DNA from: Actinomycetota bacterium
GTDB taxonomy: Bacteria; Actinomycetota; AC-67
Reading direction: 5' to 3'
Assembly: GCA_046712825.1 (NCBI GenBank)
Contig: JBKKCR010000096.1
Coordinates: 590-64,589, forward strand
Length of the DNA stretch: 64,000 nt
Below, one piece after another: positions 8,820 to 39,600 of the stretch. Below the pieces are notes generated by a model. That model was not told where the DNA came from. It worked only from the letters and a program-made list of their open reading frames with translations, and made no database searches. Numbering within the stretch: the first letter of the stretch is position 1; each line of letters opens with the position of its first letter. The position numbers were made by a program, and so were the translations under genes.

Positions 8820-9562
8820 CCGCGCTGCTCGAAGTGGATGGCATCGACGTGTTCTACGGCTCGGTGCAGGCCCTTCGGGGCGTCTCGATCCGGGTGGAGG
8901 AACGCGAGCGCGTCGCGTTGCTCGGCGCCAACGGAGCCGGCAAGACCACGACGCTACGAACGATCTCCGGAATGGTCGGACCCGGCAGCGGCTCGATCCG
9001 TTTCGCCGGGGAGGACATCGCGGGCCTCCAGGCGCACCAGGTGATCACGCGCGGGCTCGCACATCTCCCGGAAGGACGTGAGCTGTTCCCGTCGCTCACC
9101 GTCGAGGAGAACCTCCGCTACGGCTACTACACGAAGCGCAAGGACCGCTCCGGCTACGCACGGCAGCGCGACCGCGTGATGGACTTCTTCCCGAAGCTCC
9201 GGGAGCGGCGCGACCAGGCCGCGTCGACGATGTCGGGCGGGGAGCAGCAGATGGTCGCCGTGGCCCGCTCACTCATGTCGTCGCCGCGGCTGCTGTGCGT
9301 CGACGAGCTGTCGCTCGGCCTCGCGCCGATCATCGTCGAGCAGCTCTACGGGATCCTGGGCGAGGTGAACCGCGAGGGCACGGCGCTCATCATCGTGGAG
9401 CAGTTCGTGCACATGGCGCTCGCGAACACCGACCGGGCCTACGTGCTGGCCAAGGGCGGGATCGTCATGGAGGATCGCTCGGAAGCGCTTGCTGGCAGCC
9501 CGGAGCTGGTGGCCTCCTATCTCGGCGAGGCGGCGGCCATGGAGAGGGCCCCCCGCAAGTGA
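8816..9562 (+). CDS. ABC ATPase, LivF-like
   Basis: MTALLEVDGIDVFYGSVQALRGVSIRVEERERVALLGANGAGKTT; ATGA overlap with the upstream gene; internal start chosen within ORF 8690..9562. Confidence 0.8.
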   Translation: MTALLEVDGIDVFYGSVQALRGVSIRVEERERVALLGANGAGKTTTLRTISGMVGPGSGSIRFAGEDIAGLQAHQVITRGLAHLPEGRELFPSLTVEENLRYGYYTKRKDRSGYARQRDRVMDFFPKLRERRDQAASTMSGGEQQMVAVARSLMSSPRLLCVDELSLGLAPIIVEQLYGILGEVNREGTALIIVEQFVHMALANTDRAYVLAKGGIVMEDRSEALAGSPELVASYLGEAAAMERAPRK

Positions 9563-10113
9563 CCCGGCGGAGGCGGGTCGCCGCGGCGCTGGCGATGGCT
9601 TTGGCTCTAGCCCTCACCGGGTGCAGCACGCGATCTGTCGCCGACGGTCGCTCCTCCCCGGGCCCGGGCGGCACGGCCGCTTCGCCTACGCAGTCCGGAC
9701 CGTCGCGCTCAAGTGGAGGTACGGGAGGCCCGCCAGCCTCCCCGACCGCGGGCAACAGCACGAAGACGCCGACCGCAGCACCGACCGGCGGGGCGACGGT
9801 GGCGAATAGCGACTTCCGGCTCGAGATCCAGGCCCCGGGTTGCGCGCGCATCGGTGGAACGCTCCCCGTCGCGATCACGACCGAACCGGAGGCAGACGTC
9901 GCACTCATCATCGCCTTCTCCGACGGTGACGCGCATGAGGCCCACCAGTTCGGAACGGCCGACGAAAAGGGCGCGTTCTCCACGCAGGTCCCGATCCCGG
10001 CCGCCGCCCCGAAGGGTGACGCCCAGCTGCTCGTGACCGTGGGTCGAGAGCTGAAGGGCAACTCCGGACAGAAGCCGTTCACCGTCGTCGGCGCGGCGGA
10101 CTCGTGCTCCTGA
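9559..10113 (+). CDS. Lipoprotein (lipobox LALTGC), Ser/Thr/Pro-rich linker
   Basis: GTG start overlapping the LivF stop (GTGA); the rest of ORF 9295..10113 upstream lies inside livF in another frame. Confidence 0.55.
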   Translation: MTRRRRVAAALAMALALALTGCSTRSVADGRSSPGPGGTAASPTQSGPSRSSGGTGGPPASPTAGNSTKTPTAAPTGGATVANSDFRLEIQAPGCARIGGTLPVAITTEPEADVALIIAFSDGDAHEAHQFGTADEKGAFSTQVPIPAAAPKGDAQLLVTVGRELKGNSGQKPFTVVGAADSCS

Positions 10114-12041: not shown

Positions 12042-12308
12042 TTGCGGTCCAGGGCACGCGTCATCGTCGGCCTCGCAACGGCCTTGTGGCTGGCCGTCAT
12101 GCATTCGACCGCCTTCGCCCAGGGCTATCCCGGAGGCGGGAACACGCCCCCTCCCACGGTTGGTGGATCGAAGTTCTTCCCGGGCGACGACAAGCTTCCG
12201 CGTACGGGCACCGACCTTCTGCTGATCATCCTGGTCGCCCTCATCATCCTGTTCGTCGGGCTCGCGCTGCATCGGCTTTCTCGCCGCGCGAATCCAAGTG
12301 ACGGCTGA
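12042..12308 (+). CDS. Micro-protein with signal peptide, LPRTG motif, hydrophobic segment and basic tail (LPXTG-type sorting-signal architecture)
   Basis: Frame of ORF 12021..12308. The GC3 bias begins near TTG 12042, which sits 9 nt after GGAGG. Product: MRSRARVIVGLATALWLAVMHSTAFA|QGYPGGGNTPPPTVGGSKFFPGDDKLPRTG-TDLLLIILVALIILFVGLAL-HRLSRRANPSDG. Confidence 0.5.
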   Translation: MRSRARVIVGLATALWLAVMHSTAFAQGYPGGGNTPPPTVGGSKFFPGDDKLPRTGTDLLLIILVALIILFVGLALHRLSRRANPSDG

Positions 12309-14052
12309 TCGTTCCGCCGCTCTAAACGGCGCGCAACCTCCCGTTCCGATGCGTTCACGCGTACGCGTTCGCATCGTCTTGCTCGCGGGAGCAGCGATCG
12401 TTCTCATGATCGGAGGGCTCGCGCTGCTCGATGCGTTGGCGGTCGCGGATGACCTCCGCTCCGGTCGTGTCGCATTCAAGATGCTGACCGATCAAGGACT
12501 CACCGGCGACGGGAAGCTCGCCCTCCAAGTCGAGCGAGGCGCGGCGATATTCGCCGAAGCAGACCGGCGCGCGCAGGGAAGCGTGTGGCTCGACGGCCTC
12601 GGGAAGATCCCGTTCCTCGGACGGCCGGCCCGGTGGTTGCAAGCGGCATCGGATATCGCTGCACGACTCGGCGAAGAAGCGGCCGATTCCGTCGGGCGCA
12701 TCGAGCCGCGCCTGAAAGCTTCCGGGGAACCCAACGGGCGGCTCGAGATGATCTCGCTCGTCGAGACCGAGCTGGCGCGTCTTGGACGCCTCGTCGGCGA
12801 CATCCGCCTCCCATCCACCGGGGGGTTCCTGCCGCCGGTAAGCGCAGCCGATCGCGAGCTGCGCTCGGATCTTGCCCGGCTACGGCGAGCGCTCGTCGCC
12901 GGAACGGTGACCACTAAAGGACTTCGTGCGTTCCTCGCCGGACCGAGCACCTACGTGGTGCTCGCCGCGAACAACGCGGAGATGCGCTCCGGGGGGATGG
13001 TGCTCCAGGTCGGCGTCCTTCAGGCATCCGGGGGGCGGGTCCTCGCGGGCGGATTCCGATCGACGGGTGAAGCTGTGCTCCGCGATCCGGCGCCGTTGCC
13101 GCCGGAACTGGAGTCGCTGTACGGCTGGCTCGATCCCGACACCGAATGGAGGAACCTCGGCACCTCTCCCAACTTTCCGGGGATCGCGCCCGTCTACGCC
13201 TCGATGGCTCAGAAGAGCGGTCTGTCCCGCGTGGACGGCGTACTCCAGATCGACGTGCTCGGCGTTCGCGCCTTGCTCGAGGTGATCGGGCCGATCGAGG
13301 TCGACGGACGGCGGTACGATCCTTCCAACGTCGAGAAGCTCATGATGCACGACCTCTACGTCGCATACGGCGACGAGCAGTTCGAGCGTCGACACGAGTT
13401 CTCGCGCCTGGCGGCAGAGGCATTCCGTGTGCTGACCGAACGCAGCTCCGATCTCGGAAAGCTCGCCAAGGCGGTGAGCCGCGCGGCCGCGGGCAGGCAC
13501 CTGCTCGCATGGTCGGCGCGCCCGGACGAGCAGCGCGCCTGGGAGCGGCTGGGTATGGACGGGAGACTCGAGCGCGACGGCTTCATGGCGACGGTTCAGA
13601 ACCACGGCGGGAACAAGCTGGATTGGTACGTGCGGGCCTCGGTCGATTTGGCGGTCGAGCGTCCGGAAGGACGTTTCCGGCGCGTTCGCGCCAAAATAAA
13701 GATCGAGAACTTGACCCCGCCCGGCGAGCCTCCCTACGTCGCCGGGAATGGCGCCATCGTTCCGAAGAACGTCTACCGAGCTTTCGTCGCCGTTTACCTT
13801 CCGGGGTGGGCGACGAACGTCGAGCTCGTGGGGCGTGAGGCCCTCGTGATCGGAACCGACGGTCCGATGCGCGTCATCGCAACGCGACTCGACATCCGCC
13901 GCGCGGCCTCGGAGGTCGTGGAAGTCGTGTTCTCGGTGCCGCCGGGTATGGAACGGATCCTGCTGCTTCCGTCCGCTCGCCCGGCACCGGTTCCGTTCCG
14001 CATCGGCGATCGCACGGTCGACGATTCGGCCAAGCGTCTCGTGACCGTCTAG
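12298..14052 (+). CDS. DUF4012-like membrane-anchored protein
   Basis: N-terminal TM; the segment YVVLAANNAEMRSGGMVLQVGVLQASGGRV resembles the DUF4012 core (NNAExRxxGG). This family is commonly found in actinobacterial polysaccharide loci. Confidence 0.6.
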   Translation: MTADRSAALNGAQPPVPMRSRVRVRIVLLAGAAIVLMIGGLALLDALAVADDLRSGRVAFKMLTDQGLTGDGKLALQVERGAAIFAEADRRAQGSVWLDGLGKIPFLGRPARWLQAASDIAARLGEEAADSVGRIEPRLKASGEPNGRLEMISLVETELARLGRLVGDIRLPSTGGFLPPVSAADRELRSDLARLRRALVAGTVTTKGLRAFLAGPSTYVVLAANNAEMRSGGMVLQVGVLQASGGRVLAGGFRSTGEAVLRDPAPLPPELESLYGWLDPDTEWRNLGTSPNFPGIAPVYASMAQKSGLSRVDGVLQIDVLGVRALLEVIGPIEVDGRRYDPSNVEKLMMHDLYVAYGDEQFERRHEFSRLAAEAFRVLTERSSDLGKLAKAVSRAAAGRHLLAWSARPDEQRAWERLGMDGRLERDGFMATVQNHGGNKLDWYVRASVDLAVERPEGRFRRVRAKIKIENLTPPGEPPYVAGNGAIVPKNVYRAFVAVYLPGWATNVELVGREALVIGTDGPMRVIATRLDIRRAASEVVEVVFSVPPGMERILLLPSARPAPVPFRIGDRTVDDSAKRLVTV

Positions 14053-14058
14053 AGCGTC

Positions 14059-15540
14059 ATGAGGGCGAAGAGCTTGCTCGTCCGAACCCATATGGATGAG
14101 GTCTCTGCTCCTAGAAAGAGCGTTATCCCCCAGCAGATAGTCAGCTTCCTCCTTGCGTTGTTCGTCGGTGTTGCACCGATCGCTTCCTCGGTGCAGTCCG
14201 CATCCCCGGTCACCGTCGCACGGCTCGAGGTTCGGATCACCACGACTTCGCCGATGACGCAGGTGATCCTGAGACCGGGCCGGATCGCCGCTCAGCGTGC
14301 AATCTCAGTGCCCGACGACGTCAAGGTCACGCAACTGCCCGCCGGATGGGTGCTCAACACACCTGGGGGCCAGCTTCGCACCGTTGTGATGCGCGCCGTT
14401 TTCGAGGAAACCGCTCGCGCGTCGAAGATCCAGGTCGCCGTGCGGAAAGGTTTCGCGGGCAGGACGGACGTGGATATCCGTAACGTGTCCGGCGCTTCGT
14501 TCGCCGCTGCGCGGGTCGTGAACGATCTTCCGCGGTCCGCCACCGGAGCCAAGTCGAGCGACGGACTCACCGTGGTGCTCACCCGAACGCGCGCGCAGCT
14601 TCTCGGCTCGGCCAACCCCACTGCGATGCTTCCGGTCGATCCGCAGCGTCTCGTCCTTGCCGCGTACTACCCGTGGTACCCGGGGACGGAAGGCAGGTAC
14701 GCCAACCCGCAGTTCGCAGACCGTCCCGTGGATGGCCGCAGCACCGCGACATGGGCCGGGGTGCTTTCGATGACGCAGCAAGCCCGGCAGGTGGGGGTCG
14801 ACGGCTTCATCGTCTCGTGGGAAGGCGAGGGTTACTCGGGCAAGAGCTTCGACCTTGCGCTTACGGCCGCGCGTCAAACCGGCGGCGTTGTCTCTCCATA
14901 CCTCGAGATGCTGCGCGCGCGTGCTCCCGGCGACACGAGCGGCAAAGCCAACCCGCTCGTCGTTCTCGAGTGGCTGAGCGCGGTGCTGGGGAGGGCCGAC
15001 AACCCGGCGTTCTTGCGATCGGGTGGCATCCCGGTGGTCTTCGTCTGGCAGATGGGCAACCTGAGCCGTCTCGGCTGGCTGAACGTGCTCGGCGAGCTCG
15101 CCAAACAAGGGAAGGATGTGCGGCTCGTCGGCGACGCCGACAACTCCTACGGAGCGGTGCAGTGGGGCGTGCAGGAGTACAACCCGAACTTCATGTCGCC
15201 CGCCGATCTGGCGCGGCACAACCGCGACGTGATGCTCGACACGAGGTTGTTGGCGACGTCCGACGCGACGGCACCGCATGTGTACGTCGCGACCGTCTCT
15301 CCCGGCTACGACGATTCGAAGATCCCCGACCCCGCGCGCACGGCTCCGGTCGTCGCGCGCGGTGAGGCGGGCGAGCGGTACATCGCCTCATGGGATGCCG
15401 CTCTCGCAGCCCAGCCGGACTGGGTGATGATCACCTCATGGAACGAGTGGTTCGAGGGCACGGCCATCGAGCCGAGCATCGGCCACGGGGACCTTGCGCT
15501 CCGTCAAACCGCGGAACAGGCCGCGCGTTTCGCCGAATAG
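14059..15540 (+). CDS. Secreted GH99-like protein (endo-alpha-mannosidase / WbsX-related fold), copy 1
   Basis: YYPWYPG...VDGFIVSWEGEG... and C-terminal WVMITSWNEWFEGTAIEP (compare the GH99 catalytic NEWHE region). Paralog of 41030..42478. Confidence 0.55.
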   Translation: MRAKSLLVRTHMDEVSAPRKSVIPQQIVSFLLALFVGVAPIASSVQSASPVTVARLEVRITTTSPMTQVILRPGRIAAQRAISVPDDVKVTQLPAGWVLNTPGGQLRTVVMRAVFEETARASKIQVAVRKGFAGRTDVDIRNVSGASFAAARVVNDLPRSATGAKSSDGLTVVLTRTRAQLLGSANPTAMLPVDPQRLVLAAYYPWYPGTEGRYANPQFADRPVDGRSTATWAGVLSMTQQARQVGVDGFIVSWEGEGYSGKSFDLALTAARQTGGVVSPYLEMLRARAPGDTSGKANPLVVLEWLSAVLGRADNPAFLRSGGIPVVFVWQMGNLSRLGWLNVLGELAKQGKDVRLVGDADNSYGAVQWGVQEYNPNFMSPADLARHNRDVMLDTRLLATSDATAPHVYVATVSPGYDDSKIPDPARTAPVVARGEAGERYIASWDAALAAQPDWVMITSWNEWFEGTAIEPSIGHGDLALRQTAEQAARFAE

Positions 15541-19865: not shown

Positions 19866-21272
19866 TCAGATATAGCCGAGCTGCCGGAGCCGCTCTTCGA
19901 GCTCGGCGGCTTCATCGCCGTCGATGGCCGCAGGCGTCTCCGACGCGTCCTCCGCCGGCGCGTACGACTCGACTTCGTCGATCGCTGCGCGAAGGGCCGG
20001 CGCGGAGGGTTCGGCCGCGGCATCCAGCGGACGAGATTCCGCCGGGTCGGAACCGAGGTCGTACAAGCGCTCGCCGCTCTCGTCGCGGATCAGCTTGAAG
20101 CGGCCGTCCGTCGCCGATGTCATCGAGCTCGCCATACGTCGGATGGCCTCGTCGGGGATCCCCCACGCGCGAGCGAGCGCCTCCTTTTCGGGGAGCATGA
20201 TCTGTCCCGCGACCTGTGAGACGGCGGCGCCGCCCGGCCGGACTTCATCGCTCCACGGATGATCCTCGATCCCGAGCGCGCCGGCGATCATCGCCGGAAG
20301 CTCGGCCAGGCTCACCGGGCCATCGTGCCCCGGCTCGACCGGCGTGGAAAAAACCAGCGGCACCCGAAGCAATCGTTCGGACATCGAGAGCAGGTGCCCG
20401 ACCATGCCGTCCTCGCCGAGGTTCTCGCCGTGATCGGACGTGAGCACGATGAGCGTCTCCTCGAGCATCCCACGGCGGTCCAGCTCCTCCGCGATCCCAC
20501 CCAGCCACGCGTCCATCTGGAAGATCGCGCGCGCGTACAGATGCCGGGTGCGCCGGATCGTGTCCTCCGGCATCCGCAGCTCGCCGACGGTCACGCGGTA
20601 CGAGCCCTCCGGCGTCTGGTATCGCGCGGCGTCGAGCGCGGCGCCTATCCGCTGCAGCCCTGAGAGGTCGTTGAACGGGCGCGGAGGGAGGTACGGCCCG
20701 TGGCACTCCATCAGGTTCACGAACCAGAAGAACGGCGCGTCGGCCTTCCGCTCGTCCATCCACTTGCGCAGGATGTGCCCTGCGGTGGTCGCGCCGTCGT
20801 CCGCGCGTGCGCGCCACGCGTCGAGCGCCCACTCGAGCCGCGTCCGCAGGCTCCGGCCCGGCGCCTTGCGCTCTACGCCCCGGATGCTGTGGAAGAGGTC
20901 GAAGCCCGTCGCGAAGCCGTTGACCTCGTGGATCCAGGGGTTGGCGCTGATCCCGCCGGTCGCGTAGCCCTTCCGTCGCAAGAACTCCGCGAGCACACGG
21001 TCGCTCCGTTCCTCGAGCAACGCGCGCGAGTTCACCCCGACCTTCGATCCTTTCTTGATCCCGCTCGTGAGCCCCAGGGCGCCGGGAAGCATCCCAGTGA
21101 ACATCGAAGCATGCGAGGGGAGGGTCCAGTTCGACGGCGCGACGACGTGCCGAGGCGCCGAACCTCCTCGCGCCAGCTGAGCGGCGACCGGTGTCGCTCC
21201 GGGCGGCGCGCCCCACGGCTCGAACCCGTCCGCGCGCGCGGTGTCGAAGACGATGAGGATCAGGTTGCGCAT
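19866..21272 (-). CDS. Alkaline-phosphatase-superfamily enzyme of the NPP/type-I phosphodiesterase kind (usually auto-annotated 'sulfatase')
   Basis: LILIVFDTARADG (metal Asp), nucleophile region TLPSHASMFTGMLPG (T-x-P-S-H...TG, NPP-like, not C/S-x-P-x-R), LTSDHGENLGEDG. Confidence 0.65.
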   Translation of the reverse strand: MRNLILIVFDTARADGFEPWGAPPGATPVAAQLARGGSAPRHVVAPSNWTLPSHASMFTGMLPGALGLTSGIKKGSKVGVNSRALLEERSDRVLAEFLRRKGYATGGISANPWIHEVNGFATGFDLFHSIRGVERKAPGRSLRTRLEWALDAWRARADDGATTAGHILRKWMDERKADAPFFWFVNLMECHGPYLPPRPFNDLSGLQRIGAALDAARYQTPEGSYRVTVGELRMPEDTIRRTRHLYARAIFQMDAWLGGIAEELDRRGMLEETLIVLTSDHGENLGEDGMVGHLLSMSERLLRVPLVFSTPVEPGHDGPVSLAELPAMIAGALGIEDHPWSDEVRPGGAAVSQVAGQIMLPEKEALARAWGIPDEAIRRMASSMTSATDGRFKLIRDESGERLYDLGSDPAESRPLDAAAEPSAPALRAAIDEVESYAPAEDASETPAAIDGDEAAELEERLRQLGYI

Positions 21273-21291
21273 CAACCCACGGTGGGCGGCG

Positions 21292-24967: not shown

Positions 24968-26239
24968 CTAACGTTCCGCGTCGTTCCCGAGGGCGAACCG
25001 GTAATACGTGAGGCGGGCAACCCTTCCGTCCTCGAGGGTGACGGCCAAGATCCGGAGATGCAGAGACCCATCCGGGGCAGCGAACTTCATCACGGCCGTG
25101 GACGTCGGGACCCCCGGATGCAGATCGCCGGCCACCTGACGGCCGTCGAGCGCGGGGTCGTTCCGGGTCTCCTCGGCCAGTCGGTCCCACGCGGCGGCGC
25201 CGCGGCCCTTCCAATCGCCGCTCGGCGCGACGACCCGCACCAAGACCGACCCAAGGAGCGATTCGTTCAGCTCGTTCGCGCGCCGGCCGACGACCGCGGC
25301 GGCGATGCGGTCCACGGTCCTTTGGATATCCGTGATCTGTGAGACGTCGCTGCGCGCGCGATGCCCGCGCTCCCGGTCACGCAGCCGTCCACGCAAACGC
25401 CGCAGCGGCGGTTCGGGAAGCGGAGCCGCGGCACCGCTTGCCGACTTCGCGGCGAACTCCGGCTCGAGGTATCCCAAGCGCTCGAGGGTTCCGCCGGCGA
25501 CTTTCATAAGTGCGCTCAGGTCTGTCTCCGAGATCTTTTCGCGCCACTTCCCGGCACCCACCCGTCCGGTCGTCGGGTCCTGGTTGAAGGCGACCTTCGC
25601 CTCGCGGAGCGCCTCCTCGACCATCACCGGTGTCGCCGGGAGTCCGAACCATGCGAAGAGCTCCGCGACGTGAGCCTGTGGATCTACGAGCATCTCCTCG
25701 TAGCGGACGGTCCGAAATCGCTCCAGGCCCGCGCTCGCGGTTTCTGCGGCCTCGACCGAGCTACGCCACTCCATCGCCGCTTCCTCGAACGTGCGCGGAG
25801 CGTTCTTCCACGGCTGGGTCATGAGAGACCGTGCGACGTCGCGTCCATCACGGACGATGTTCAGGATCCACGCATCGGGATAGATCTCGCCGATCAGCTC
25901 GAGACACGTCACGTGCTCCGGGGTTCGCTCGGCCAGGCGCGTGGCGCCGGGGACGGTCTTGAGGAAGGGCAAGAAGACCCCGTCGCATAGGTTGCGCAGC
26001 GCGCGGGTCATCTCGCTTGGGTCCATGTACACGAAAGCCGTTCCCGGCGACCCCAGCACGCCGTGGTGGAAGCGCTCCCGGAGCGGCTTTATGCCTCGCG
26101 AGAAGAGATAGGTTTCCGAGGGCACCAAGGCCACCTCGGGGTGAGCGCCGAGGATGCGCTGTACCCAGTTGGTGCCGCTGCGGCGTGCGCCGACTAGGAA
26201 GATCATCCGGTCGCGCAGTGGTCCTTCGATGGAGCCCAT
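24968..26239 (-). CDS. Sulfotransferase domain (PAPS 5'-PSB loop GARRSGTNW) fused to a C-terminal ~150-aa NTF2/SnoaL-like domain
   Basis: MIFLVGARRSGTNWVQRILGAHPEV... then a RDV arginine region; C-terminal extension beyond a normal ~280-aa sulfotransferase. Confidence 0.6.
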   Translation of the reverse strand: MGSIEGPLRDRMIFLVGARRSGTNWVQRILGAHPEVALVPSETYLFSRGIKPLRERFHHGVLGSPGTAFVYMDPSEMTRALRNLCDGVFLPFLKTVPGATRLAERTPEHVTCLELIGEIYPDAWILNIVRDGRDVARSLMTQPWKNAPRTFEEAAMEWRSSVEAAETASAGLERFRTVRYEEMLVDPQAHVAELFAWFGLPATPVMVEEALREAKVAFNQDPTTGRVGAGKWREKISETDLSALMKVAGGTLERLGYLEPEFAAKSASGAAAPLPEPPLRRLRGRLRDRERGHRARSDVSQITDIQRTVDRIAAAVVGRRANELNESLLGSVLVRVVAPSGDWKGRGAAAWDRLAEETRNDPALDGRQVAGDLHPGVPTSTAVMKFAAPDGSLHLRILAVTLEDGRVARLTYYRFALGNDAER

Positions 26240-26928: not shown

Positions 26929-27792
26929 ATGACCCGCATGCAACCCGTGGAAACGCCGCAACCGAGGCTGCCCACGTTCGTCATCATCGGCGCCATGAAA
27001 TCGGGGACGACCACGCTCGGGGCCTATCTCAATGCCCACCCCGACGCGTACTGCGCTCAAGAGCCGCACTTCTTCGACCAGAACTTCGAGCGAGGGGTGC
27101 CGTGGTACCGCGAACGCTTCCGGGACGCCGGGGCTGCGGCGGTGGTCGGCGAGAAGTCGCCTTCCTACATGTATCACCCGGATGCGATCCGGAGGCTCAC
27201 CGAGGTCTTGCCGGATGCCCGGCTGGTCGCGATCCTTCGGCATCCGGGTCACCGCGCATATTCGCACTACTGGCACGAGCGGCGGATCAAACAAGAGACG
27301 CTTTCCTTCGGCGACGCCCTCGACGCGGAGCCGCGCCGGCTGCGCGACTACGCGGACGGCCTGTGCCCCTTCGCCTACGTGGACCGCGGCCTCTACCTGG
27401 AGCAGCTCCGGCGCGTGGTCGGGTTCGCGCCGAGGGAGCGGCTGCTCGTGCTGCTCTTCGAGGATCTCCTGCGGGTGCCCGTGGAAACCTACTCCGAACT
27501 CGGTCGCTTCCTCGGCATCGACGGCTCTTTGGCCGCCCCGCCGGGCCCGGAGGAGTCGAACGCGTACCGCACCTATCATCCGGAATGGGCTTGGAAGCTG
27601 ATGCACCGGTATCGGCTCTGGGGACGCCTTCCGCGCCCGATCGCGGGACGGCTGTGGCGTGCGATGCAGCGCGAGGCGACGTATCCGCCGATCACCGAGG
27701 CGCAGCACGCGCGACTCCTCGATCGTTTCGCGGAACCCAACCGCGAGTTGGCCGATTGGTTAGGGCGCGACCTCTCCGAGTGGAGCGTCTGA
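26929..27792 (+). CDS. Sulfotransferase (heparan-sulfate/Sulfotransfer_3-like)
   Basis: PTFVIIGAMKSGTTTL (5'-PSB K-x-G-T-T) ... ILRHPGHRAYSHY (3'-PB region). Confidence 0.75.
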   Translation: MTRMQPVETPQPRLPTFVIIGAMKSGTTTLGAYLNAHPDAYCAQEPHFFDQNFERGVPWYRERFRDAGAAAVVGEKSPSYMYHPDAIRRLTEVLPDARLVAILRHPGHRAYSHYWHERRIKQETLSFGDALDAEPRRLRDYADGLCPFAYVDRGLYLEQLRRVVGFAPRERLLVLLFEDLLRVPVETYSELGRFLGIDGSLAAPPGPEESNAYRTYHPEWAWKLMHRYRLWGRLPRPIAGRLWRAMQREATYPPITEAQHARLLDRFAEPNRELADWLGRDLSEWSV

Positions 27793-27802
27793 ACTACCGG
27801 AG

Positions 27803-28633
27803 CTAGCCGATGCCCCAGCCGTCGAAGCCGGGCGGCATGTAGGCGCGCAGCCGCTCGACCGTCGGCTGCAGCCGCTCCCGAAGTTCCGACTCGACCGTGG
27901 CGGGAACCGCAACCGAGTCGGGAGCAGTGTGCCGCGTTGTGAGGCGCCGCAGCCTCCGCGCGATCGGTCGGGGCGTGGAGGGCCGTTCGGCGAGACGCCG
28001 CAGGGCCGGGATGCGATCGCCAAGGAGCGTCGGCGCAGGCTTGTCCTCGGTCCGGTGAAGCCTCTCGTCCAGGTTCGGCGGTGTCCGGCGGTCGTCCACC
28101 CCGATGAAGCCATAGATCGTTCGCAGGGTATCGGCGCGACGATCATCGAGCTCTTCGCTCGTCACGATCAGCAGCTGCTCACGAGGGAAGGACCCGAGGT
28201 ATCGCTCGATCTGGGTCGCGTAGTCGCTCAACGCGAACAGCATCGGGTTCGTCAAGAGGACTTCCGATGCCGGCCCACGTTCGCCGTACTCCGCAACATG
28301 GTGGAGGTACTGCGAAACCATGCGCCGGATGGGATGACGAACGACGTACACCATGCGCGCTTCGGGCAGCACCCGCTTGATGCGCTCGGGAACCCCCGGA
28401 AAGAACGGATGTTTCGTGTAGGAGGTCGAAGCCTCGCCTCGAGCGGCAGCGGCACCGCCCGATGCGAAGCAGCTCTCGTACCAGTCGACGCCGCGTTCCC
28501 AATTCTTGCCTTCGACGAAGAATTCGAGCTCCTTCGGCTCGGCCATGAACACGTCTGGGTGCGCTTGAAGGTACGCGTGGAGGCTCGTCGTGCCCGCCTT
28601 CATCGCGCCGATAACCAGGAAGGTCGGAAGCAT
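27803..28633 (-). CDS. Sulfotransferase (tandem duplicate of 28944..29777)
   Basis: MLPTFLVIGAMKAGTTSLHAYLQAHP...; start by frame arithmetic in ORF 27803..28774. Confidence 0.75.
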   Translation of the reverse strand: MLPTFLVIGAMKAGTTSLHAYLQAHPDVFMAEPKELEFFVEGKNWERGVDWYESCFASGGAAAARGEASTSYTKHPFFPGVPERIKRVLPEARMVYVVRHPIRRMVSQYLHHVAEYGERGPASEVLLTNPMLFALSDYATQIERYLGSFPREQLLIVTSEELDDRRADTLRTIYGFIGVDDRRTPPNLDERLHRTEDKPAPTLLGDRIPALRRLAERPSTPRPIARRLRRLTTRHTAPDSVAVPATVESELRERLQPTVERLRAYMPPGFDGWGIG

Positions 28634-28678
28634 CTGAGCTCGCACGATAACACCGGGTTGGGGGCGGCTGGGGGCCGA

Positions 28679-28790
28679 GACTACAGCACGATCGTCCGTG
28701 AGCTGATCGACCCGCGCACCATCGCGGTGACCTCCGCGAGATCGACGATCAGCGCGCCGGGAAGCTCCAGCCATCGCTGCCGGCGTCCCT
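28679..28790 (-). pseudogene. Relic of the 3' end of a GT2 gene, carried along with the sulfotransferase duplication
   Basis: ORF 28681..28941 ends ...RRQRWLELPGALIVDLAEVTAMVRGSISSRTIVL, near-identical to the C-terminus of the GT2 at 29778..30764 (...RRQRWLVLPGALLVDLAEVTAMVRGSISSRTIVL); DNA ~85% identical over ~110 bp. Confidence 0.5.
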
Positions 28791-28943: not shown

Positions 28944-29777
28944 CTAGGCGATACCCCAGCCGTCGAATCCGGGCCCCATGTAGGCGCGCAGCTTCATGAT
29001 GTCGGGGCGGATCTGCGCGCGGATCCGCTCCTCGAGCTCCGCGGGGAGCTCTAGCGTGGACGTCGTCAGCGTCTTCGTGGTCACCCGGAAATGCAGGCGG
29101 CGGAGGGGAGCCGGAGTGAGCCTGGCGGCCGCGCGGTACAGACGGTTGTCGCGTATCTTTTCGATCGACTCCTTGCGGAGGTAGACCTCCCCGGTCGTGT
29201 TCGTCCGGCTCGACACCTCAGGCGGCGTCCAGCCCGGATCGACATCGAGGAAGGAGTAGACCGAGCGCATTGTCTCCACATACGAACCACGCAAGCCTTC
29301 GGTCGTGATGAGGAGGATCTGCTCGCGCGGGAAGTGACTCAGATAGTGCTCCAGTTGCCACGCGTACTGACTCGCGCGCACGTACCCGGGATGCTCACGC
29401 AAGGCCCGCTCCGGCGACCGCGACTCGCTTCCGGCGCGCAAGCGCTCCAGGTAGTGGGAGCGTAGACGCTTCATCGGGTCGCGTAACAGGTAGATGAGCT
29501 TCGCGTCCGGGATCAGGTCCGCGATCCGACCCGGCACTCCCGGATATGCATGGGCGAGTGTGTACTCCGGCGAGGCTTCTCCGATTGCCGTGGCGTCCCC
29601 AGCGCCGGCGAATTGGTCCAGGTACCAGTTCTGCCCGCGCCCCCAGTTCTTCTCCGCGATGAAATAAGCGAGCTCCTTTTCGGCCGGAGTGAAGATCTGC
29701 GGGTGGGCTCGCAGGTGGTGCCAGAGGCTGGTGGTCCCCGCCTTCATCGCGCCGATGACCAAGAAGGTCGGAAGCAT
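28944..29777 (-). CDS. Sulfotransferase
   Basis: MLPTFLVIGAMKAGTTSLWHHLRAHP...; ~50% identical to 27803..28633. Confidence 0.75.
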   Translation of the reverse strand: MLPTFLVIGAMKAGTTSLWHHLRAHPQIFTPAEKELAYFIAEKNWGRGQNWYLDQFAGAGDATAIGEASPEYTLAHAYPGVPGRIADLIPDAKLIYLLRDPMKRLRSHYLERLRAGSESRSPERALREHPGYVRASQYAWQLEHYLSHFPREQILLITTEGLRGSYVETMRSVYSFLDVDPGWTPPEVSSRTNTTGEVYLRKESIEKIRDNRLYRAAARLTPAPLRRLHFRVTTKTLTTSTLELPAELEERIRAQIRPDIMKLRAYMGPGFDGWGIA

Positions 29778-30764
29778 CTACAAGACGATCGTTCGTGAAC
29801 TGATCGATCCGCGCACCATCGCCGTAACCTCGGCGAGATCCACGAGAAGCGCGCCGGGAAGCACGAGCCAGCGCTGTCGCCGTCCCTGAGCGAGCGGCGC
29901 CGTCCGCACCCGATACCAGATCCAAGGGATCGCAAGCAGCAGCGCTGCGCGCTTGCGCGGCGCCAGGAGCAAACCGGCCATGGCGGCCAGCGCGGTCGGA
30001 TGAGACGGCTTCCAGAAGAGCCCTCCGTACAGATAGCCGCGCCCTTCCGGGTGCAACTTGACGACGCGGGGGATACCCGTCCATTTGAGCGCGTCCCGGG
30101 TTGCCGCGCGCAGGTCGCTCGGCTTCACGTCGTGATGCACGAGCGCCTCGGGCGCGAAGATGGCTTCCACGCCGCGGCGACGGATGCGCCAGCCGAGGTC
30201 GGTGTCTTCACCTCCGTGACGGCTGAAGGCCTCGTCGAAGCCGCCTGCTGCCTCGAGGTCGCTCCGGCGATAGAAGATGTTGCACGTCTCGAAGTAGGTG
30301 GCGTCCCTGACCGTGATCGTCCGTGAGAACGGGCCTTCAAGGTGCTGCTGGGCCGGGTCGGGGAGCGTGCGGCCGACGACGATCCGGGGACCCGCCCCCA
30401 GAGCTTCCAGACCTCGCTCGAGCCACGACGGCGTCGGGACGCAATCGTCGTCGGTGAACGCGACGACCGGTGCACGGGCACGGCCCCAGCCGATGTTGCG
30501 CGCGGCCGCCTGCCGCCGGTTGCGGCCGTCTCCGAGGATCTCGATGGACAACGTGCTGCGTCGCGCCAGGCCGGCGAGCAGCTCCACGGTTCCGTCGGTG
30601 GAGCCGTCGTCGACGAAGATCACCTCGAAGGAGCTCGGTGGAAGCGTCTGGGCCTCGAGCGCGCCGATGAGCCGCGGGAGGAGCTCGGCGCGATTGTAGG
30701 TTGCGATCACGACCGAGACGCGCGGGGCATCGCCGTTCGCGCTGCCGCGCTTCAGGCGCGCCAT
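29778..30764 (-). CDS. Glycosyltransferase family 2
   Basis: VSVVIATYNRAELLPRLIGALEAQT...EVIFVDDGSTDGT...AFTDDDCVP; start MARLKRG by frame arithmetic. Confidence 0.8.
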   Translation of the reverse strand: MARLKRGSANGDAPRVSVVIATYNRAELLPRLIGALEAQTLPPSSFEVIFVDDGSTDGTVELLAGLARRSTLSIEILGDGRNRRQAAARNIGWGRARAPVVAFTDDDCVPTPSWLERGLEALGAGPRIVVGRTLPDPAQQHLEGPFSRTITVRDATYFETCNIFYRRSDLEAAGGFDEAFSRHGGEDTDLGWRIRRRGVEAIFAPEALVHHDVKPSDLRAATRDALKWTGIPRVVKLHPEGRGYLYGGLFWKPSHPTALAAMAGLLLAPRKRAALLLAIPWIWYRVRTAPLAQGRRQRWLVLPGALLVDLAEVTAMVRGSISSRTIVL

Positions 30765-31591
30765 GACGACAAGTCCCTCCCGAGAAGCTGTTCGAGGCCG
30801 GCGATCTGGTCCGCGTATGCCTGGACGAGGCGGCGGCGAAGCTCGGGATCCATCGGCTCGTACGTGCTGCGGTCCGGACGCACGTTCATCGCGTTGATAC
30901 GCCAAGCCCACGAGCGCGGGATGCGACGCTTCAGGCGGGCCTTCAACACCGCCTCTCTCAGACGCACGGAGCGGACGCGCATCCGCGGATTGTAGGTCTT
31001 GCCCAGGTTGTCGGGCCGGTACCCGTCGTCGACGCCGAGGAATCGGCAGGCGTCGCCATACACGCCCGAAGCGTCCGACGCCAGATCCTCGAATAGCATC
31101 ACCATCAACGCCGAGGGCGGAAAGAGGCCGTGGAGTTTCCGGATCTGTTCCAGGTATCTGCCTCGAGCGAGGTAGAAGCCGAACGGTGGCGCCGTCCCCG
31201 CAAGCTCCTCGTCCACGACTTGAGCGAGCGGACGCTTTTCGCGGCCGATCGCACGGAGGTGGAGGAACTGCGAGTAGATCCGCTCCGCGGGATGCCGCAG
31301 GATCGCGATCATGCGGACGTCGGGCAGTAGCTTCGCCATCCGGTCCGGAACGTCCGGATGGGCCATGTACCCGGGGGTCGCCTCACCGATGGCGGGTTTG
31401 CCGGCACCGGCAGCGAACTGCGCTCGGTACCACTCTTCTCCCGCCTCGTAGCGATGAGGGTTGTCGAAGAAGTGAAGTTCCTTCTCCGAGGGGATGAAGA
31501 CCTCGGGGTGTTCGCGCAACCATGCCGCGAGCGAGGTGGTTCCGGCTTTCATCGCACCGATGATGAGGAAGTTCGGCAGCGGCGCGGTCAT
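30752..31591 (-). CDS. Sulfotransferase
   Basis: LPNFLIIGAMKAGTTSLAAWLREHP ... MIAILRHPAERIYSQF. Confidence 0.75.
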   Translation of the reverse strand: MTAPLPNFLIIGAMKAGTTSLAAWLREHPEVFIPSEKELHFFDNPHRYEAGEEWYRAQFAAGAGKPAIGEATPGYMAHPDVPDRMAKLLPDVRMIAILRHPAERIYSQFLHLRAIGREKRPLAQVVDEELAGTAPPFGFYLARGRYLEQIRKLHGLFPPSALMVMLFEDLASDASGVYGDACRFLGVDDGYRPDNLGKTYNPRMRVRSVRLREAVLKARLKRRIPRSWAWRINAMNVRPDRSTYEPMDPELRRRLVQAYADQIAGLEQLLGRDLSSWRA

Positions 31592-31604
31592 CTCGTTGCC
31601 CGCC

Positions 31605-32477
31605 TCATGGGACGCGTCCCTCGACGAACGGCACCTCGAAGACCTTGTCGTGGGCGACGGGGCCGTGGCCGAAGTATCCGTCCTCACCGAAGAGCTCACC
31701 GTGGTCGGACGTCACAACGACCCAGGTGTTGCTCGGGACGAGGTCGAAGAGCCGCTCGACGACGCCGTCTAAATAGCGGACGGCGTTGATCTGACGGTCG
31801 CGCAGCTCGGCGAGCTTCGCGTCGTCGAAGAACTCCGGTTCGCCTTCGGCGCCCGGCTGGTCGTCGAGTCGTTTGAAGACGCCGTGCACGCCCGATATCC
31901 GCGGCCAGGTCGAGGGGTCCTCATCGGGAAGCGCGTAGGGGTAGTGCGTCTCGCCGGTGTTCAACAGGTAGAAGGAAGGCCGCTCTTCCGAGAACGTCAT
32001 CTGGTCGAGCATGGCCGCCATGTCGTTGTGCTTCGGCATCAGCTCGTATGAGTCGAAGTCGCGGTTGATTGGCGTATGCCGGTTCAGAACCGGCATCGAC
32101 ACCATCGCATGCGTCGCGTAGCCGAGCTCCTTGCGAAGGAAGGTCGGCATGAAGATCGACGGAAGGAGCCGCTTGAACTCGATGCCTTGGACGCCGATCC
32201 GTTCGCTGTACCGGGTGAAGTCTTGCTTGTAGTACTCGGACGCGTACACACGAGGAGGGCTCGTATGAGGGAGGAGACCCATCAGCAAGTTGTAATGCGA
32301 CGGCGCGGTCCACGACGCATAGCTCCACCGCCGTTCGGGCTTTCCGAGGAGGCTCAGGGTCTTGGGGGAAGCGGCGACCCACGAGTCGTAGCGGCAAGAG
32401 TCGAAGATGACGACGACGAGGTTCCGCGCGCCCTCGGGGGGGCGCGGGCGTTCGGGCGCGGCTTCGGAGGGATCCAT
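31605..32477 (-). CDS. Alkaline-phosphatase-superfamily NPP/phosphodiesterase-like enzyme (second copy)
   Basis: LVVVIFDSCRYDSW, TAPSHYNLLMGLLPH (T-x-P-S-H), VVVTSDHGELFGEDGYFGHG; start at MDPSEA. Confidence 0.65.
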   Translation of the reverse strand: MDPSEAAPERPRPPEGARNLVVVIFDSCRYDSWVAASPKTLSLLGKPERRWSYASWTAPSHYNLLMGLLPHTSPPRVYASEYYKQDFTRYSERIGVQGIEFKRLLPSIFMPTFLRKELGYATHAMVSMPVLNRHTPINRDFDSYELMPKHNDMAAMLDQMTFSEERPSFYLLNTGETHYPYALPDEDPSTWPRISGVHGVFKRLDDQPGAEGEPEFFDDAKLAELRDRQINAVRYLDGVVERLFDLVPSNTWVVVTSDHGELFGEDGYFGHGPVAHDKVFEVPFVEGRVP

Positions 32478-36784: not shown

Positions 36785-38533
36785 TCATGCCGATGCTGCG
36801 CTGGGCTCCCCGGATCCGATGTAGCCCTCACGCTCGAGGTGCAACACGATCTGCTGGGCGGCTTCCTCAGGCGTGAGCTCGGTGGTATCGATCGTGATGT
36901 CGGCGTCCACGGGCTCCTCGTATGGATCCGAGATCCCGGTAAACTCCTTGAGGATCCCGGCGCGGGCCTTGGCGTAGAGCCCCTTCCGGTCGCGCTCCTC
37001 GCAGATCTCGAGCGGCGTCGCGACGTGGATCAGCACGAACCCGCCCATCGGCTCGATCATCCCGCGCACCTCTTTGCGGATGCTGTCGTAGGGCGCGATC
37101 GGGGCACAGATCGCTATGCCGCCGTTCTTGGTGATCTCGGACGCCACATAGCCGATGCGACGGATGTTGATGTCGCGATGCTCGCGGGAGAAGCCGAGCT
37201 CCGAAGACAGGTTCTTGCGAACCAGATCCCCATCGAGCATCGTGACCGGCCGCCCGCCCATCTCGAGGAACTTCACGAACAGCGCGTTCGCGATCGTCGA
37301 CTTCCCCGATCCCGACAGCCCGGTGAAGAAGACTGTGAGTCCCTGCTTGTGCCGCGCCGGATGCGTCTTGCGTAGCTCGGTGACGACCTCGGGGAACGAG
37401 AACCAGCTCGGGATATCGCGACCGTCCCCGAGCCGTTCGCGCAGCTCGGTTCCCGAGATATCGAGCACGCGCTCGCCTTCGGGCACCTCGTCCTCGGGGA
37501 AGTACGTGTCCCGGTCGGGCACGTAGAGCATCTGGCGGAACGGCACCATCCCGACGCCCAGTTCCTCCTCGTACTTCCGGAGCAGGTCCTGCGCGTCGTA
37601 GGGGCCGTAGTAGGGCGTTCCCTCGGGATCCTTGCCCGGTCCGGCGTGGTCGCGTCCCACGATGAAATGGGTGCAGCCGTGGTTCTTGCGGATGATCGCG
37701 TGCCAGACGGCCTCACGCGGTCCGGCCATGCGCATCGCCAGCGGCAGCAACGCCAGCTTCGCCGAGTACGACGGATAGCGATGCATGAGCGCCTCATAAC
37801 AGCGGACGCGTGTGTAGTGGTCGACGTCGCCGGGCTTGGTCATCCCGACCACCGGGTGCACGAGTAGGTTCGCCTCGAGCTCCTTGGAGGCGCGCAGCGT
37901 CAGCTCGAAATGCGCGCGGTGCATCGGGTTCCGCGTCTGGAACGCGACGATCTGCCGCCACCCCAGTCGCGAGAACTCCTCTCGGAGCTGCCGTGGCCCG
38001 AGGCGAAGTCCCGTGTAGTCGTAATGGATCGGCAGTTGGAGCCCCTCGATCTTGCCGCCAACGAACCACGCGTGCGTGCGGTCGGCCAGGTGCCCGACGC
38101 CGGGATGAGAGGTGTCGGTGTTTCCGTACACCTGCTCTGCCTCGGCCATCCGATCCGGCTTCCACACGTCGGTGATGTGGAGGACGGCGAGCATGACGCC
38201 TTCGGGATCCCGCAGCGCGAGCGCAGCGCCCGACCCGAGGCCCTTCGCGACGTCCTCGGTGACGTCGAGCACGACGGGGATGGGCCACAGCGTGCCGTCC
38301 GCCAAGCGCATGCGCTCGCAGACCTCCCGATGGTCCGCCTCCCCCATGAACCCCTCAAGCGGAGAGAAGCCGCCGGTGAGCAAGAGTTCCAGGTCGCAGA
38401 TCTGGCGGGGGGTCAGGTCCCAGGACGGCCATTCGCGGGAGGCGACCTTGAGCTGTGCCGAGCGGTTCTCGTCGGTCATGAGGTCGACGAGGCTGCCGCC
38501 GTGGGGCGGGATGAGATGGTCTTGGGCGCTCAC
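36785..38533 (-). CDS. Bifunctional sulfate adenylyltransferase (ATP sulfurylase) / adenylylsulfate kinase = PAPS synthase
   Basis: N-terminal sulfurylase (QTRNPMHRAHFEL, HFIVGRDHAGPG) plus C-terminal APS kinase (GLSGSGKSTIA Walker A, DGDLVRKNLSSELGFS). Confidence 0.85.
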   Translation of the reverse strand: MSAQDHLIPPHGGSLVDLMTDENRSAQLKVASREWPSWDLTPRQICDLELLLTGGFSPLEGFMGEADHREVCERMRLADGTLWPIPVVLDVTEDVAKGLGSGAALALRDPEGVMLAVLHITDVWKPDRMAEAEQVYGNTDTSHPGVGHLADRTHAWFVGGKIEGLQLPIHYDYTGLRLGPRQLREEFSRLGWRQIVAFQTRNPMHRAHFELTLRASKELEANLLVHPVVGMTKPGDVDHYTRVRCYEALMHRYPSYSAKLALLPLAMRMAGPREAVWHAIIRKNHGCTHFIVGRDHAGPGKDPEGTPYYGPYDAQDLLRKYEEELGVGMVPFRQMLYVPDRDTYFPEDEVPEGERVLDISGTELRERLGDGRDIPSWFSFPEVVTELRKTHPARHKQGLTVFFTGLSGSGKSTIANALFVKFLEMGGRPVTMLDGDLVRKNLSSELGFSREHRDINIRRIGYVASEITKNGGIAICAPIAPYDSIRKEVRGMIEPMGGFVLIHVATPLEICEERDRKGLYAKARAGILKEFTGISDPYEEPVDADITIDTTELTPEEAAQQIVLHLEREGYIGSGEPSAASA

Positions 38534-38729: not shown

Positions 38730-39575
38730 GTGGGACACCAGATGGCCTCAGTTCCGGTCGAACAAGGGTTCGAGCTGCGCGGAGAGCGCAGCCGCTTGTC
38801 CACGCTCGTTCGCGACCTGTGGCGCTCTCGCGAGCTCGTCATCATGCTGGCGCGCAAGGACTTCTTCGTCCGCTACCGCCGCGCGTCGCTCGGAATCATC
38901 TGGGCCATCGGCCTTCCACTCGTCCAGGCGTCCGTCTTCGCCTTCGTCCTGAGTCAGTTCGCTCGGTTCGAGACACCCATCCCCTTCGCGGTCTTCGTTT
39001 TCTCGGGCGTCCTTCCGTGGAGCTTCTTCAACAACGCGGTGACGATGGGTACCACCTCGATCATCGACGGGTCGGCGCTTGCGACGAAGATCTACTTCCC
39101 GAGGGCTGTCTTGCCGCTCGTAACGGTCTTCTCGGGTTTCTACGGACTGATTATCGGCATCGTGGTCATGGTCGCGATGGCCGGCGCATTCGGCGCGCCG
39201 CTCGGCCTTCCGCTGCTCCTCCTGGTGCCGGCGATGGCGCTGCTCGTACTGCTCGCTTCCGGATTCGCTCTGATCCTGGGAGCGCTCCAGGTCTACTTCC
39301 GCGACATCAAGCACGTGATAGCGGCGATCACGCTGCCGTGGTTCTGGGCCTCCGGCGTCTTCTACCCCCAATCGGTCCTGAGTGAGGACTTCCGCCGCCT
39401 GATAGCGATCAATCCTGCGGTCGGGATGATCTCGCTTTTCCGAGCCGCGATCGGCTCCGCCCCCGCCGGCTGGGAGACGAGCGTCTTTTGGTCGATCGGC
39501 TGGGTCGTTGCGTTGTTCGTCCTCGCGGCCGTTCTGTACCGGCGCTGGGACCGAGTATGCGTGGATCTCCTGTGA
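38730..39575 (+). CDS. wzm: ABC-2 type polysaccharide exporter permease (Wzm/TagG-like)
   Basis: LWRSRELVIMLARKDFFVRYRRASLGIIWAIGLP (ABC-2 signature), 6 TM. Confidence 0.8.
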   Translation: MGHQMASVPVEQGFELRGERSRLSTLVRDLWRSRELVIMLARKDFFVRYRRASLGIIWAIGLPLVQASVFAFVLSQFARFETPIPFAVFVFSGVLPWSFFNNAVTMGTTSIIDGSALATKIYFPRAVLPLVTVFSGFYGLIIGIVVMVAMAGAFGAPLGLPLLLLVPAMALLVLLASGFALILGALQVYFRDIKHVIAAITLPWFWASGVFYPQSVLSEDFRRLIAINPAVGMISLFRAAIGSAPAGWETSVFWSIGWVVALFVLAAVLYRRWDRVCVDLL

Positions 39576-39600
39576 CGAGGAGACCGAAGGGCTCGCGCGC

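Follow-up and report, generated by a model that had tools for sequence, protein, structure and literature searches.

A 64,000-nucleotide stretch of contig JBKKCR010000096.1 (positions 590 to 64,589) from the Actinomycetota assembly GCA_046712825.1, referred to below as the window, holds two genes, P1 and P2, whose predicted proteins resemble sulfatases and are found within a sulfation locus. Judged from their sequences, P1 is a long and P2 a short paralogue within a single uncharacterized clade inside the Pfam family PF00884 (Sulfatase); they cannot be formylglycine (FGly) sulfatases, stand outside the sulfation module that surrounds them, and most likely transfer phosphate rather than remove sulfate. 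We favor, at a probability of roughly 0.6, the reading that both are active cytoplasmic metalloenzymes that would use a Thr nucleophile on phosphorus, pass through a phospho-Thr intermediate and work as a pair in cytoplasmic glycan tailoring. Public records label relatives of P1 and P2 generically ("sulfatase-like hydrolase/transferase", "arylsulfatase A-like enzyme"), and a sulfatase label amid sulfotransferases invites the wrong reading that the locus also removes sulfate. The value of the finding lies in the correction of an annotation and in a lead for enzymology; the mechanism is no surprise, because the exchange of Thr for FGly is well known in the alkaline-phosphatase superfamily.

Thr at the formylglycine position

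Both genes (Table 1) have third-position G+C (GC3) values of the coding type, the measure on which the gene calls in the window (67% G+C overall) are based, and an exact-sequence look-up of the two proteins, with either start codon, returned no matching record. A sequence-only reading of the window, which did not give the strand (minus for both genes), had reported the motifs TLPSHASMFTG in P1 and TAPSHYNLLMG in P2 together with the lack of C/S-x-P-x-R, and translation and alignments bear out both observations. At the motif position of both proteins C/S-x-P/A-x-R is absent, and HMMER alignments to solved sulfatases (SpAS1, 4upi; choline sulfatase) put the Thr where the sulfatases have Cys/FGly and the His where they have the Arg, as in choline sulfatase 'LCAPARASFMAG' aligned against P1 'WtlPsHasmftG'. 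Since the Thr falls exactly in the FGly column, i.e., at the canonical position, an FGly-type sulfatase with an alternative nucleophile position, which that reading had named as the outcome that would speak against it, is not what the alignments point to.

Thr50 and His54 are invariant in 48/48 aligned P1 homologues, and Thr57 and His61 in 44/44 aligned P2 homologues, which rules out a chance match. A database search with P1 gives 952 relatives at E <= 1e-5; the top 120 are full-length and 44-100% identical, and T-x-P-[SA]-H is found in 119 of these 120. P2 has 6273 relatives at the same threshold (74-92% identity among the best 120), and even those at only ~31-45% identity still have LDSxRxD ... 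W-T-x-P-[SA]-H ... [SA]DHGExxGExGxxGH. The Thr-type motif is a family trait, and decay is ruled out. The further invariant residues are D10, N111, E189, H191, D280, H281, E283, N284 and H293 in the P1 family (48 sequences), and D26, E176, H178, D258, H259, E261 and H271 in the P2 family (44 sequences). Invariance of nucleophile and metal-ligand residues alike argues for active enzymes.

The pattern of what is kept and what is replaced is best seen against choline sulfatase and SpAS1, to which the P1 profile aligns with E values of 8e-30 to 5e-29. Still present in P1 are D10 as the first metal ligand, the pair D280-H281 and, in the H-x-P-Y segment, H191, whose counterpart in the choline sulfatase alignment is a conserved His of the active site. 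The FGly precursor is replaced by T50, the motif Arg by H54 and the distal Lys by H293, and the Lys/His loop S-G-K-M-H of the sulfatases is exchanged for S-A-N-P-W; in P2, His271 falls on the conserved Lys of the sulfatases 7p24 and 6ptk. These replacements bear on whether P1 and P2 could be true sulfuryl-transfer enzymes, either sulfatases or ping-pong sulfotransferases, with Thr in place of FGly. The sulfatase-family fold, PF00884 as the best profile and the position of both genes inside the sulfation locus of the window would suit such a role, but no elimination route is open to a sulfo-Ser/Thr ester, at which FGly-to-Ser sulfatase mutants come to a dead end, and most members of the two families have no sulfation genes nearby. 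Additionally, the residues essential in the arylsulfatase/phosphonate monoester hydrolase (AS/PMH) clade, listed for EfAS as R65, K110, H112, H220 and K324 plus D20, C61, D311 and H312 (PMC12421950), include a sulfate-binding Arg, Lys/His pair and distal Lys, all of which are replaced, so that sulfuryl transfer by P1 or P2 is very improbable.

On family profiles, P1 scores 89.7 bits against the whole of PF00884 and P2 scores 43.8 bits (cut-off 25). Against PF01663 (Phosphodiest; cut-off 23), P1 reaches 41.5 bits through its residues 5-71, with the best stretch at profile positions 1-64 of 342, and P2 stays under the cut-off with 15.4 bits. The sequence-only reading had proposed this comparison as the way to tell the two families apart; PF00884 is indeed higher for both proteins, yet the comparison does not discriminate, because PF00884 also includes the Thr-nucleophile phosphoethanolamine and phosphoglycerol transferases and because the pattern is no different for a true Cys-type sulfatase. 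That negative control, the product of 8496-10016 in the related locus L070, shows the same N-terminal PF01663 cross-match at 29.9 bits. It is encoded on the minus strand in a Terriglobia metagenome-assembled genome, divergent from and adjoining a P2 orthologue, and is a genuine Cys-type sulfatase (motif CAATRASILTG; 153 bits on PF00884, plus an SGSH_C domain). The NCBIfam models give only sub-threshold matches for P1 and P2.

The AlphaFold2 model of P1 is good, with a predicted local distance difference test score (pLDDT) of 88.7 and a predicted template modeling score (pTM) of 0.91, and that of P2 is acceptable (pLDDT 78, pTM 0.84), although residues 56-58 and 195-202 are modeled with low confidence. 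Several hundred structures in the Protein Data Bank (PDB) match each model at E <= 0.001 in Foldseek searches, and the best 50 of each all belong to the alkaline-phosphatase superfamily. P1 is closest to choline sulfatase, SpAS1/2 and the PMHs (E 1e-19 to 1e-16). For P2, EptC ranks at the top, followed by ICR-Mc, LptA/EptA, LtaP, MCR-1/2, LtaS, GacH and YejM, with sulfatases interleaved (E 3e-9 to 2e-6). Both predicted proteins clearly fall in this superfamily, with a modeled alpha/beta core, a nucleophile at a helix N-terminus and an Asp / Asp-His metal site. No NPP (nucleotide pyrophosphatase/phosphodiesterase) structure is found among the best 50 fold matches of P1 or P2, and P1 and P2 do not qualify as members of the S1 sulfatases, NPP, the EptA/LtaS-type transferases or the STM4013 family. 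The E. faecium Mn-arylsulfatase 9koq, present in both fold lists, was considered as a non-FGly precedent and rejected, since it uses Cys61 converted to FGly (PMC12421950).

The presence of YejM periplasmic domains among the fold matches of P2, and a weak NCBIfam LapC/YejM match for P1, could suggest that P1 and P2 are non-catalytic sulfatase-fold proteins, in keeping with the scaffolding or regulatory role that has been discussed for YejM/PbgA. Such a loss of catalysis is highly doubtful given the full invariant set of nucleophile and metal-ligand residues across hundreds of sequences from several phyla, a signature of selection on catalysis.

Taken with the residues, these comparisons divide the proposal of the sequence-only reading that the two proteins are phosphodiesterases or phosphotransferases rather than sulfatases. 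The likeness to the NPP nucleophile segment that it pointed out is real at the motif level, where the P2 profile aligns with 2gsn and the N-terminal residues of P1 match PF01663. The part that denies an FGly sulfatase also stands, given the invariant T-x-P-S-H and the substituted sulfate-binding residues; among the open reading frames (ORFs) of the window that were scanned, no gene for a formylglycine-generating enzyme (FGE) or an anaerobic sulfatase-maturating enzyme (anSME) was found. Membership in the NPP family is not borne out: PF00884 outscores PF01663, and the best 50 fold matches of each protein include no NPP.

P1 is a long form consisting of the core domain and a C-terminal subdomain, and P2 a short form that amounts to a minimal alkaline-phosphatase-type core. 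The two families are paralogous (hhalign profile-profile alignment, 99.5% probability, E 1.2e-22), with conserved catalytic residues in register and the extra C-terminal subdomain of ~160 residues in P1 as the difference between them. A hydropathy scan of 240 members of the two families found no transmembrane helix or signal peptide, the median maximum over 19 residues being 1.0-1.2. The first beta-strand of P1 begins at about residue 4, and the N-terminal extension of the P2 family (17-49 residues) is hydrophilic; both proteins are predicted to be soluble and cytoplasmic. P1 ends in a conserved C-terminal helix, E-x4-E-x-R-x3-L-G-Y-[IL] (residues 454-468; 19866-19913), in which E454, E459, R461, L465, G466 and Y467 are invariant or nearly so and which could be an oligomerization or partner-binding element. 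No informative domain fusion was seen among the longer P2 relatives inspected, and apparent P2-P1 fusion ORFs in L008 and L011 were dismissed: there the P1 frame simply runs on upstream in high-GC DNA, and the tblastn frames and strands differ.

Genomic setting of P1 and P2

The gene order of the window recurs in the metagenomic contig L001, in which P2 is the best-conserved gene (84% identity), ahead of the 3'-phosphoadenosine 5'-phosphosulfate (PAPS) synthase (79%), the sulfotransferases (42-55%) and P1 (45%). Of the 185,579 species genomes scanned, at least 571 contain a P2 relative that is 65-81% identical along its whole length; these genomes come from Actinomycetota (Solirubrobacterales, Thermoleophilia, Acidimicrobiales), Binatia, Acidobacteriota, thermophilic Synechococcus/Thermostichus, Chloroflexota, Nitrospirota and Proteobacteria. 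A constraint of this kind across at least six phyla is unusually tight for a gene of a polysaccharide locus.

Neighborhoods were counted over 57 loci for which 18 kb or more of sequence is available, using flanks of 10 kb. About 31 of them have a P1 homologue (41-47% identical) next to the P2 homologue or close to it; almost all of these are from Actinomycetota and one is from Chloroflexota. The recurring partners of P1 and P2 are a family 2 glycosyltransferase (GT2; homologous to the one in Table 1), a Polysacc_synt flippase, methyltransferases and a PMT_2 protein. Most related loci have P1 and P2 side by side, as is usual in Actinomycetota, and lack the sulfation block. Separate look-ups of P1 homologues on long contigs found a divergent P2-P1 pair amid many methyltransferases, glycosyltransferases and a flippase, with no sulfotransferases, and around a closer P1 relative the left arm of the window locus (DUF4012, GH99, methyltransferases, glycosyltransferases) is found again. 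P1 and P2 thus count among the core genes conserved in a methylated-glycan locus type, and the sulfotransferase/PAPS-synthase module appears to be a lineage-specific addition around them.

These counts bear on the idea, put forward in the sequence-only reading, that in a PAPS-consuming locus the two enzymes could act on PAPS or 3'-phosphoadenosine 5'-phosphate (PAP). On this account P1 and P2 would serve sulfation by hydrolyzing PAP, PAPS or adenosine 5'-phosphosulfate (APS), as in CysQ-like clean-up or regulation, or would hydrolyze nucleotide sugars as NPP does. The NPP-like nucleophile segment, the lack of a CysQ-type gene among the window ORFs scanned and the sulfotransferase gene directly adjoining P2 agree with it, and the cross-phylum conservation of P2 would suit a universal small-molecule substrate, e.g., a nucleotide. 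However, a sulfotransferase lies within 10 kb in only 4/57 loci by tblastn and 11/57 by iterated profile, a PAPS synthase lies within 10 kb of the P2 homologue in 1/57, and the P1 homologues on long contigs sit in methyltransferase/glycosyltransferase/flippase loci that lack sulfotransferases. With low or sub-cut-off PF01663 scores and no NPP among the best 50 fold matches besides, an action on PAPS, PAP or nucleotides is quite unlikely, and the proposed link to sulfation gives way to the observation that the two families are mostly found in glycan loci without sulfation genes.

The breadth of P2 raises another alternative, namely that P2 at least is a housekeeping phosphatase, phosphodiesterase or phosphomutase of the cytoplasm that acts on a common metabolite or lipid and is merely embedded in the locus. 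This would accord with its rank as the most conserved gene of the L001 synteny, with its occurrence in many species across phyla and with its heterogeneous neighbors in Binatia, Bryobacterales and cyanobacteria, which include Cys-tRNA synthetase-, acyl-CoA dehydrogenase- and aldolase-like ORFs (labeled by eye) as well as an LPG_synthase_TM protein. Yet in Actinomycetota P2 is closely linked with P1 and with genes for GT2, flippase and methyltransferases, the setting in Binatia (LPG_synthase_TM, GT2, large polytopic membrane proteins) is still an envelope context, and presence in a small fraction of the species scanned is unlike that of a core metabolic enzyme. We therefore regard a housekeeping role as unlikely.

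In Synechococcus/Thermostichus, a conserved ORF of ~170 aa with a hydrophobic N-terminal region and no Pfam match precedes the P2 orthologue (Table 1) and overlaps its start by ~13 nt, which suggests translational coupling.

Within the window, the glycan locus spans ~12.3-54 kb. The sulfation context described in the sequence-only reading is correct: five sulfotransferases, paralogous to one another (Sulfotransfer_3/_1), lie between P1 and P2, and a PAPS synthase made of PUA_2, ATP-sulfurylase and APS-kinase domains is accompanied by glycosyltransferases, methyltransferases and the exporter genes Wzm and Wzt. In detail, the locus contains at least 6 methyltransferases, eleven GT2/GT4 genes, a hexapeptide acyltransferase, a Wzy_C-like protein and a Bac_transf initiating transferase, and it is flanked by a DUF4012 protein (12298-14052, +) and two GH99/GH71/WbsX-like proteins (14059-15540, +; 41030-42478, +); the same DUF4012-GH99 arrangement stands beside the P1 homologue in L083. 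The sulfotransferases, PAPS synthase and Wzm/Wzt predict a heavily sulfated, methylated and ABC-transporter-exported glycan in this uncultured actinobacterium. The Wzt ATPase (39508-40845, +) carries a Wzt_C carbohydrate-binding domain. In known systems Wzt_C recognizes a non-reducing terminal modification of the chain, and so one methyl, sulfate or putative phospho modification may be the chain terminator.

Two long ORFs of the window, 1863-4544 (+; 893 aa, GC3 0.75) and 53804-56251 (+; 815 aa, GC3 0.85), have no Pfam match at E <= 0.001. The glycan locus is followed downstream by a small cupredoxin (56264-56629, +) and a pyrroloquinoline quinone (PQQ) beta-propeller with a C-terminal cupredoxin domain (58423-60348, +). 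The window also holds a bacterial type IB topoisomerase (61165-62331, -; Topoisom_I plus Top1B_N_bact) and the gene for an ATP-dependent DNA ligase, cut off by the end of the window (63177-64000, +).

Table 1. Positions of P1, P2, their conserved segments and associated genes (numbered within the window unless a locus is named).
Feature	Position	Strand	Remarks
P1	19866..21272	minus	468 aa; ATG at 21272; in-frame TTG at 21275; GC3 0.87
P1 nucleophile motif TLPSHASMFTG	21093..21125	minus	Thr50, His54; from translation
P1 LMECHGPY segment	20691..20714	minus	invariant Glu189, His191
P1 DHGENLGEDGMVGH	20394..20435	minus	metal ligands Asp280/His281; invariant Glu283/Asn284; His293 at the distal Lys of sulfatases
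P2	31605..32477	minus	290 aa; ATG at 32477; possible extension to TTG at 32642; GC3 0.82
P2 nucleophile motif TAPSHYNLLMG	32277..32309	minus	Thr57, His61; from translation
P2 TGETHYPY segment	31935..31958	minus	invariant Glu176, His178; in register with P1 Glu189/His191
P2 DHGELFGEDGYFGH	31665..31706	minus	metal ligands Asp258/His259; His271 on the conserved distal Lys column of sulfatases
Sulfation block between P1 and P2	24968..31699		five sulfotransferases
Sulfotransferase	24968-26239	minus	
Sulfotransferase	26929-27792	plus	
Sulfotransferase	27803-28774	minus	
Sulfotransferase	28944-29777	minus	
Sulfotransferase	30752-31699	minus	
GT2 glycosyltransferase	29778..30911	minus	cluster c1; homologues are one of the commonest neighbors of the P1/P2 pair in other Actinomycetota loci (18/29)
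Bifunctional PAPS synthase	36785..38533	minus	PUA_2 + ATP-sulfurylase + APS kinase fusion
~170-aa ORF before P2, L065	9477-9989		
~170-aa ORF before P2, L075	9459-9959		
~170-aa ORF before P2, L055	8471-9001		
~170-aa ORF before P2, L061	9384-9959		

A proposed phospho-Thr route in glycan tailoring

In the favored explanation, a metal-activated Thr (Thr50 in P1, Thr57 in P2) would attack a phosphate ester or diester, and the covalent phospho-Thr intermediate so formed would then be passed to water or to an acceptor hydroxyl, a chemistry that is that of EptA/MCR-1, LtaS and NPP. The candidate residues for a bimetal site, all of them invariant, are D10/T50/D280/H281 plus E189/H191/H293 in P1 and D26/T57/D258/H259 plus E176/H178/H271 in P2. 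By analogy with the second metal site of NPP and alkaline phosphatase and with His395/His478 of MCR-1, the Glu-x-His pair (E189/H191; E176/H178) and the distal His (H293; H271) may bind a second metal or the phosphoryl group. From its genomic context, the pair would act at the cytoplasmic stage of cell-surface glycan assembly, beside tailoring enzymes that depend on S-adenosylmethionine, on PAPS and presumably on acyl-CoA, and would attach or take off a phospho-linked substituent before Wzm/Wzt, or Wzx in related loci, exports the glycan. A narrower version, in which the enzymes are transferases that install such a substituent, is tentative and well short of a favored reading.

The explanation builds on the fold, the Thr in the nucleophile column, the retained Asp/Thr/Asp/His metal site, the loss of sulfate-specific residues, the paralogy of P1 and P2, their lack of membrane anchors and their genomic association. 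Some points weigh against it. To our knowledge, all characterized Thr-type enzymes of PF00884 (EptA/B/C, MCR, LtaS, GacH, OpgB) are membrane-anchored with an extracytoplasmic catalytic domain, and there is thus no direct precedent for a soluble cytoplasmic form. In sequence and fold overall, P1 is most similar to genuine FGly enzymes. At residues 56-58 of the P2 model, which include the nucleophile itself, pLDDT falls below 50. Finally, outside Actinomycetota P2 is found without P1 within the 10-kb flanks and in heterogeneous neighborhoods, so its role may not be glycan-specific.

Should the proposed chemistry hold, glycan pathways that depend on ABC transporters or on Wzx would gain a new tailoring activity in soil Actinomycetota, Binatia, Acidobacteriota and thermophilic cyanobacteria.

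Comparison with known enzyme families

Searches of the literature on Thr-type sulfatase-fold enzymes, STM4013, sulfated actinobacterial polysaccharide loci and cytoplasmic PF00884 transferases turned up no paper on the P1/P2 clade. It is a sizeable clade, predicted to be cytoplasmic, in which we found no characterized member and in which a sulfatase/PMH scaffold is combined with residues of the Thr-type phosphotransferases.

The STM4013/SEN3800 family hydrolases (NF038075), short, single-domain and uncharacterized proteins of ~260 aa in the alkaline-phosphatase superfamily, provide the best NCBIfam match of P2, at 66.4 bits (47.2 bits for P1) against a cut-off of 250, with the best stretch on P2 limited to the C-terminal ~70 residues; the literature searched contains no functional study of this family. 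The N-terminal nucleophile segment of Xanthomonas NPP (2gsn, 'SYPSLTFPNHYTLVTGLRPD') aligns with the P2 profile, and the likeness covers the T-x-P-x-H-Y-x-L-x-x-G-L-x-P segment, the preceding L-D-x-x-R-x-D strand and the S-D-H-G metal ligands; the bimetallo center may also be common to P1 and P2. However, the PF01663 match is confined to the first 64 of 342 profile positions for P1 and is sub-cut-off for P2, the best 50 fold matches lack NPP, and the D-x-x-x-H motif, which we take to be a Zn ligand motif of NPP, is not evident on reading the P1 and P2 sequences.

The phosphoethanolamine and phosphoglycerol transferases of PF00884 (EptA/LptA, EptC, MCR-1, LtaS, GacH) have the Thr nucleophile in common with P1 and P2. 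In the EptA/MCR type the metal site is likewise made of an acidic residue, the Thr, an Asp and a His (S/T-D-H-G-E), and EptC, MCR and LtaS are the best Foldseek matches of P2 (E 3e-9 to 8e-7). In MCR-1, Zn1 is bound by Glu246/Thr285/Asp465/His466 and Zn2 by His395/His478 (PMC5175174), and P1 and P2 have two conserved, invariant His at what appear to be the positions equivalent to His395 and His478. Enzymes of the EptA/LtaS/GacH type themselves decorate envelope glycoconjugates. The differences are nevertheless considerable: EptA, MCR and LtaS consist of an N-terminal multi-pass membrane domain and an extracytoplasmic catalytic domain, whereas P1 and P2 have neither hydrophobic segment nor signal peptide; the first metal ligand is Asp in P1 and P2 but Glu in the EptA/MCR type; the Thr is followed by x-P-S-H, which is sulfatase/NPP-like and unlike the EptA/MCR type; and the NCBIfam EptA/MCR models give only 11-16 bits against cut-offs of 500-1250. 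A bolder version of the proposal, which we hold to be speculative and doubtful, would make P1 and P2 an unrecognized soluble, cytoplasmic branch within the alkaline-phosphatase superfamily that bears an NPP/EptA-like Thr and (bi)metal center on a sulfatase/PMH scaffold. The pair would put phosphodiester-linked substituents onto lipid-linked glycans, or alter them there, ahead of export, as a cytoplasmic counterpart of the periplasmic EptA/LtaS/GacH, and P2 would represent an unusually constrained catalytic core common to at least six phyla.

The FGly enzymes of the AS/PMH clade (choline sulfatase BetC, SpAS1/2, RlPMH, BcPMH, EfAS) are closest to P1 in sequence and fold and share with it the two-subdomain architecture, the Asp/Asp-His metal ligands and the conserved His in H-x-P-Y. 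They differ from it at the positions that define their chemistry, where Cys/Ser-FGly has become Thr, the motif Arg has become His, the Lys/His loop has become Asn/Trp and the distal Lys has become His. As read from sequence, P1 and P2 carry a residue constellation of the phosphotransferase type on a scaffold of the sulfatase type, and, if this holds for the enzymes themselves, they would offer enzymologists a naturally occurring form midway between two branches, sulfatase and phosphotransferase, of a superfamily that serves as a model for the evolution of catalytic promiscuity.

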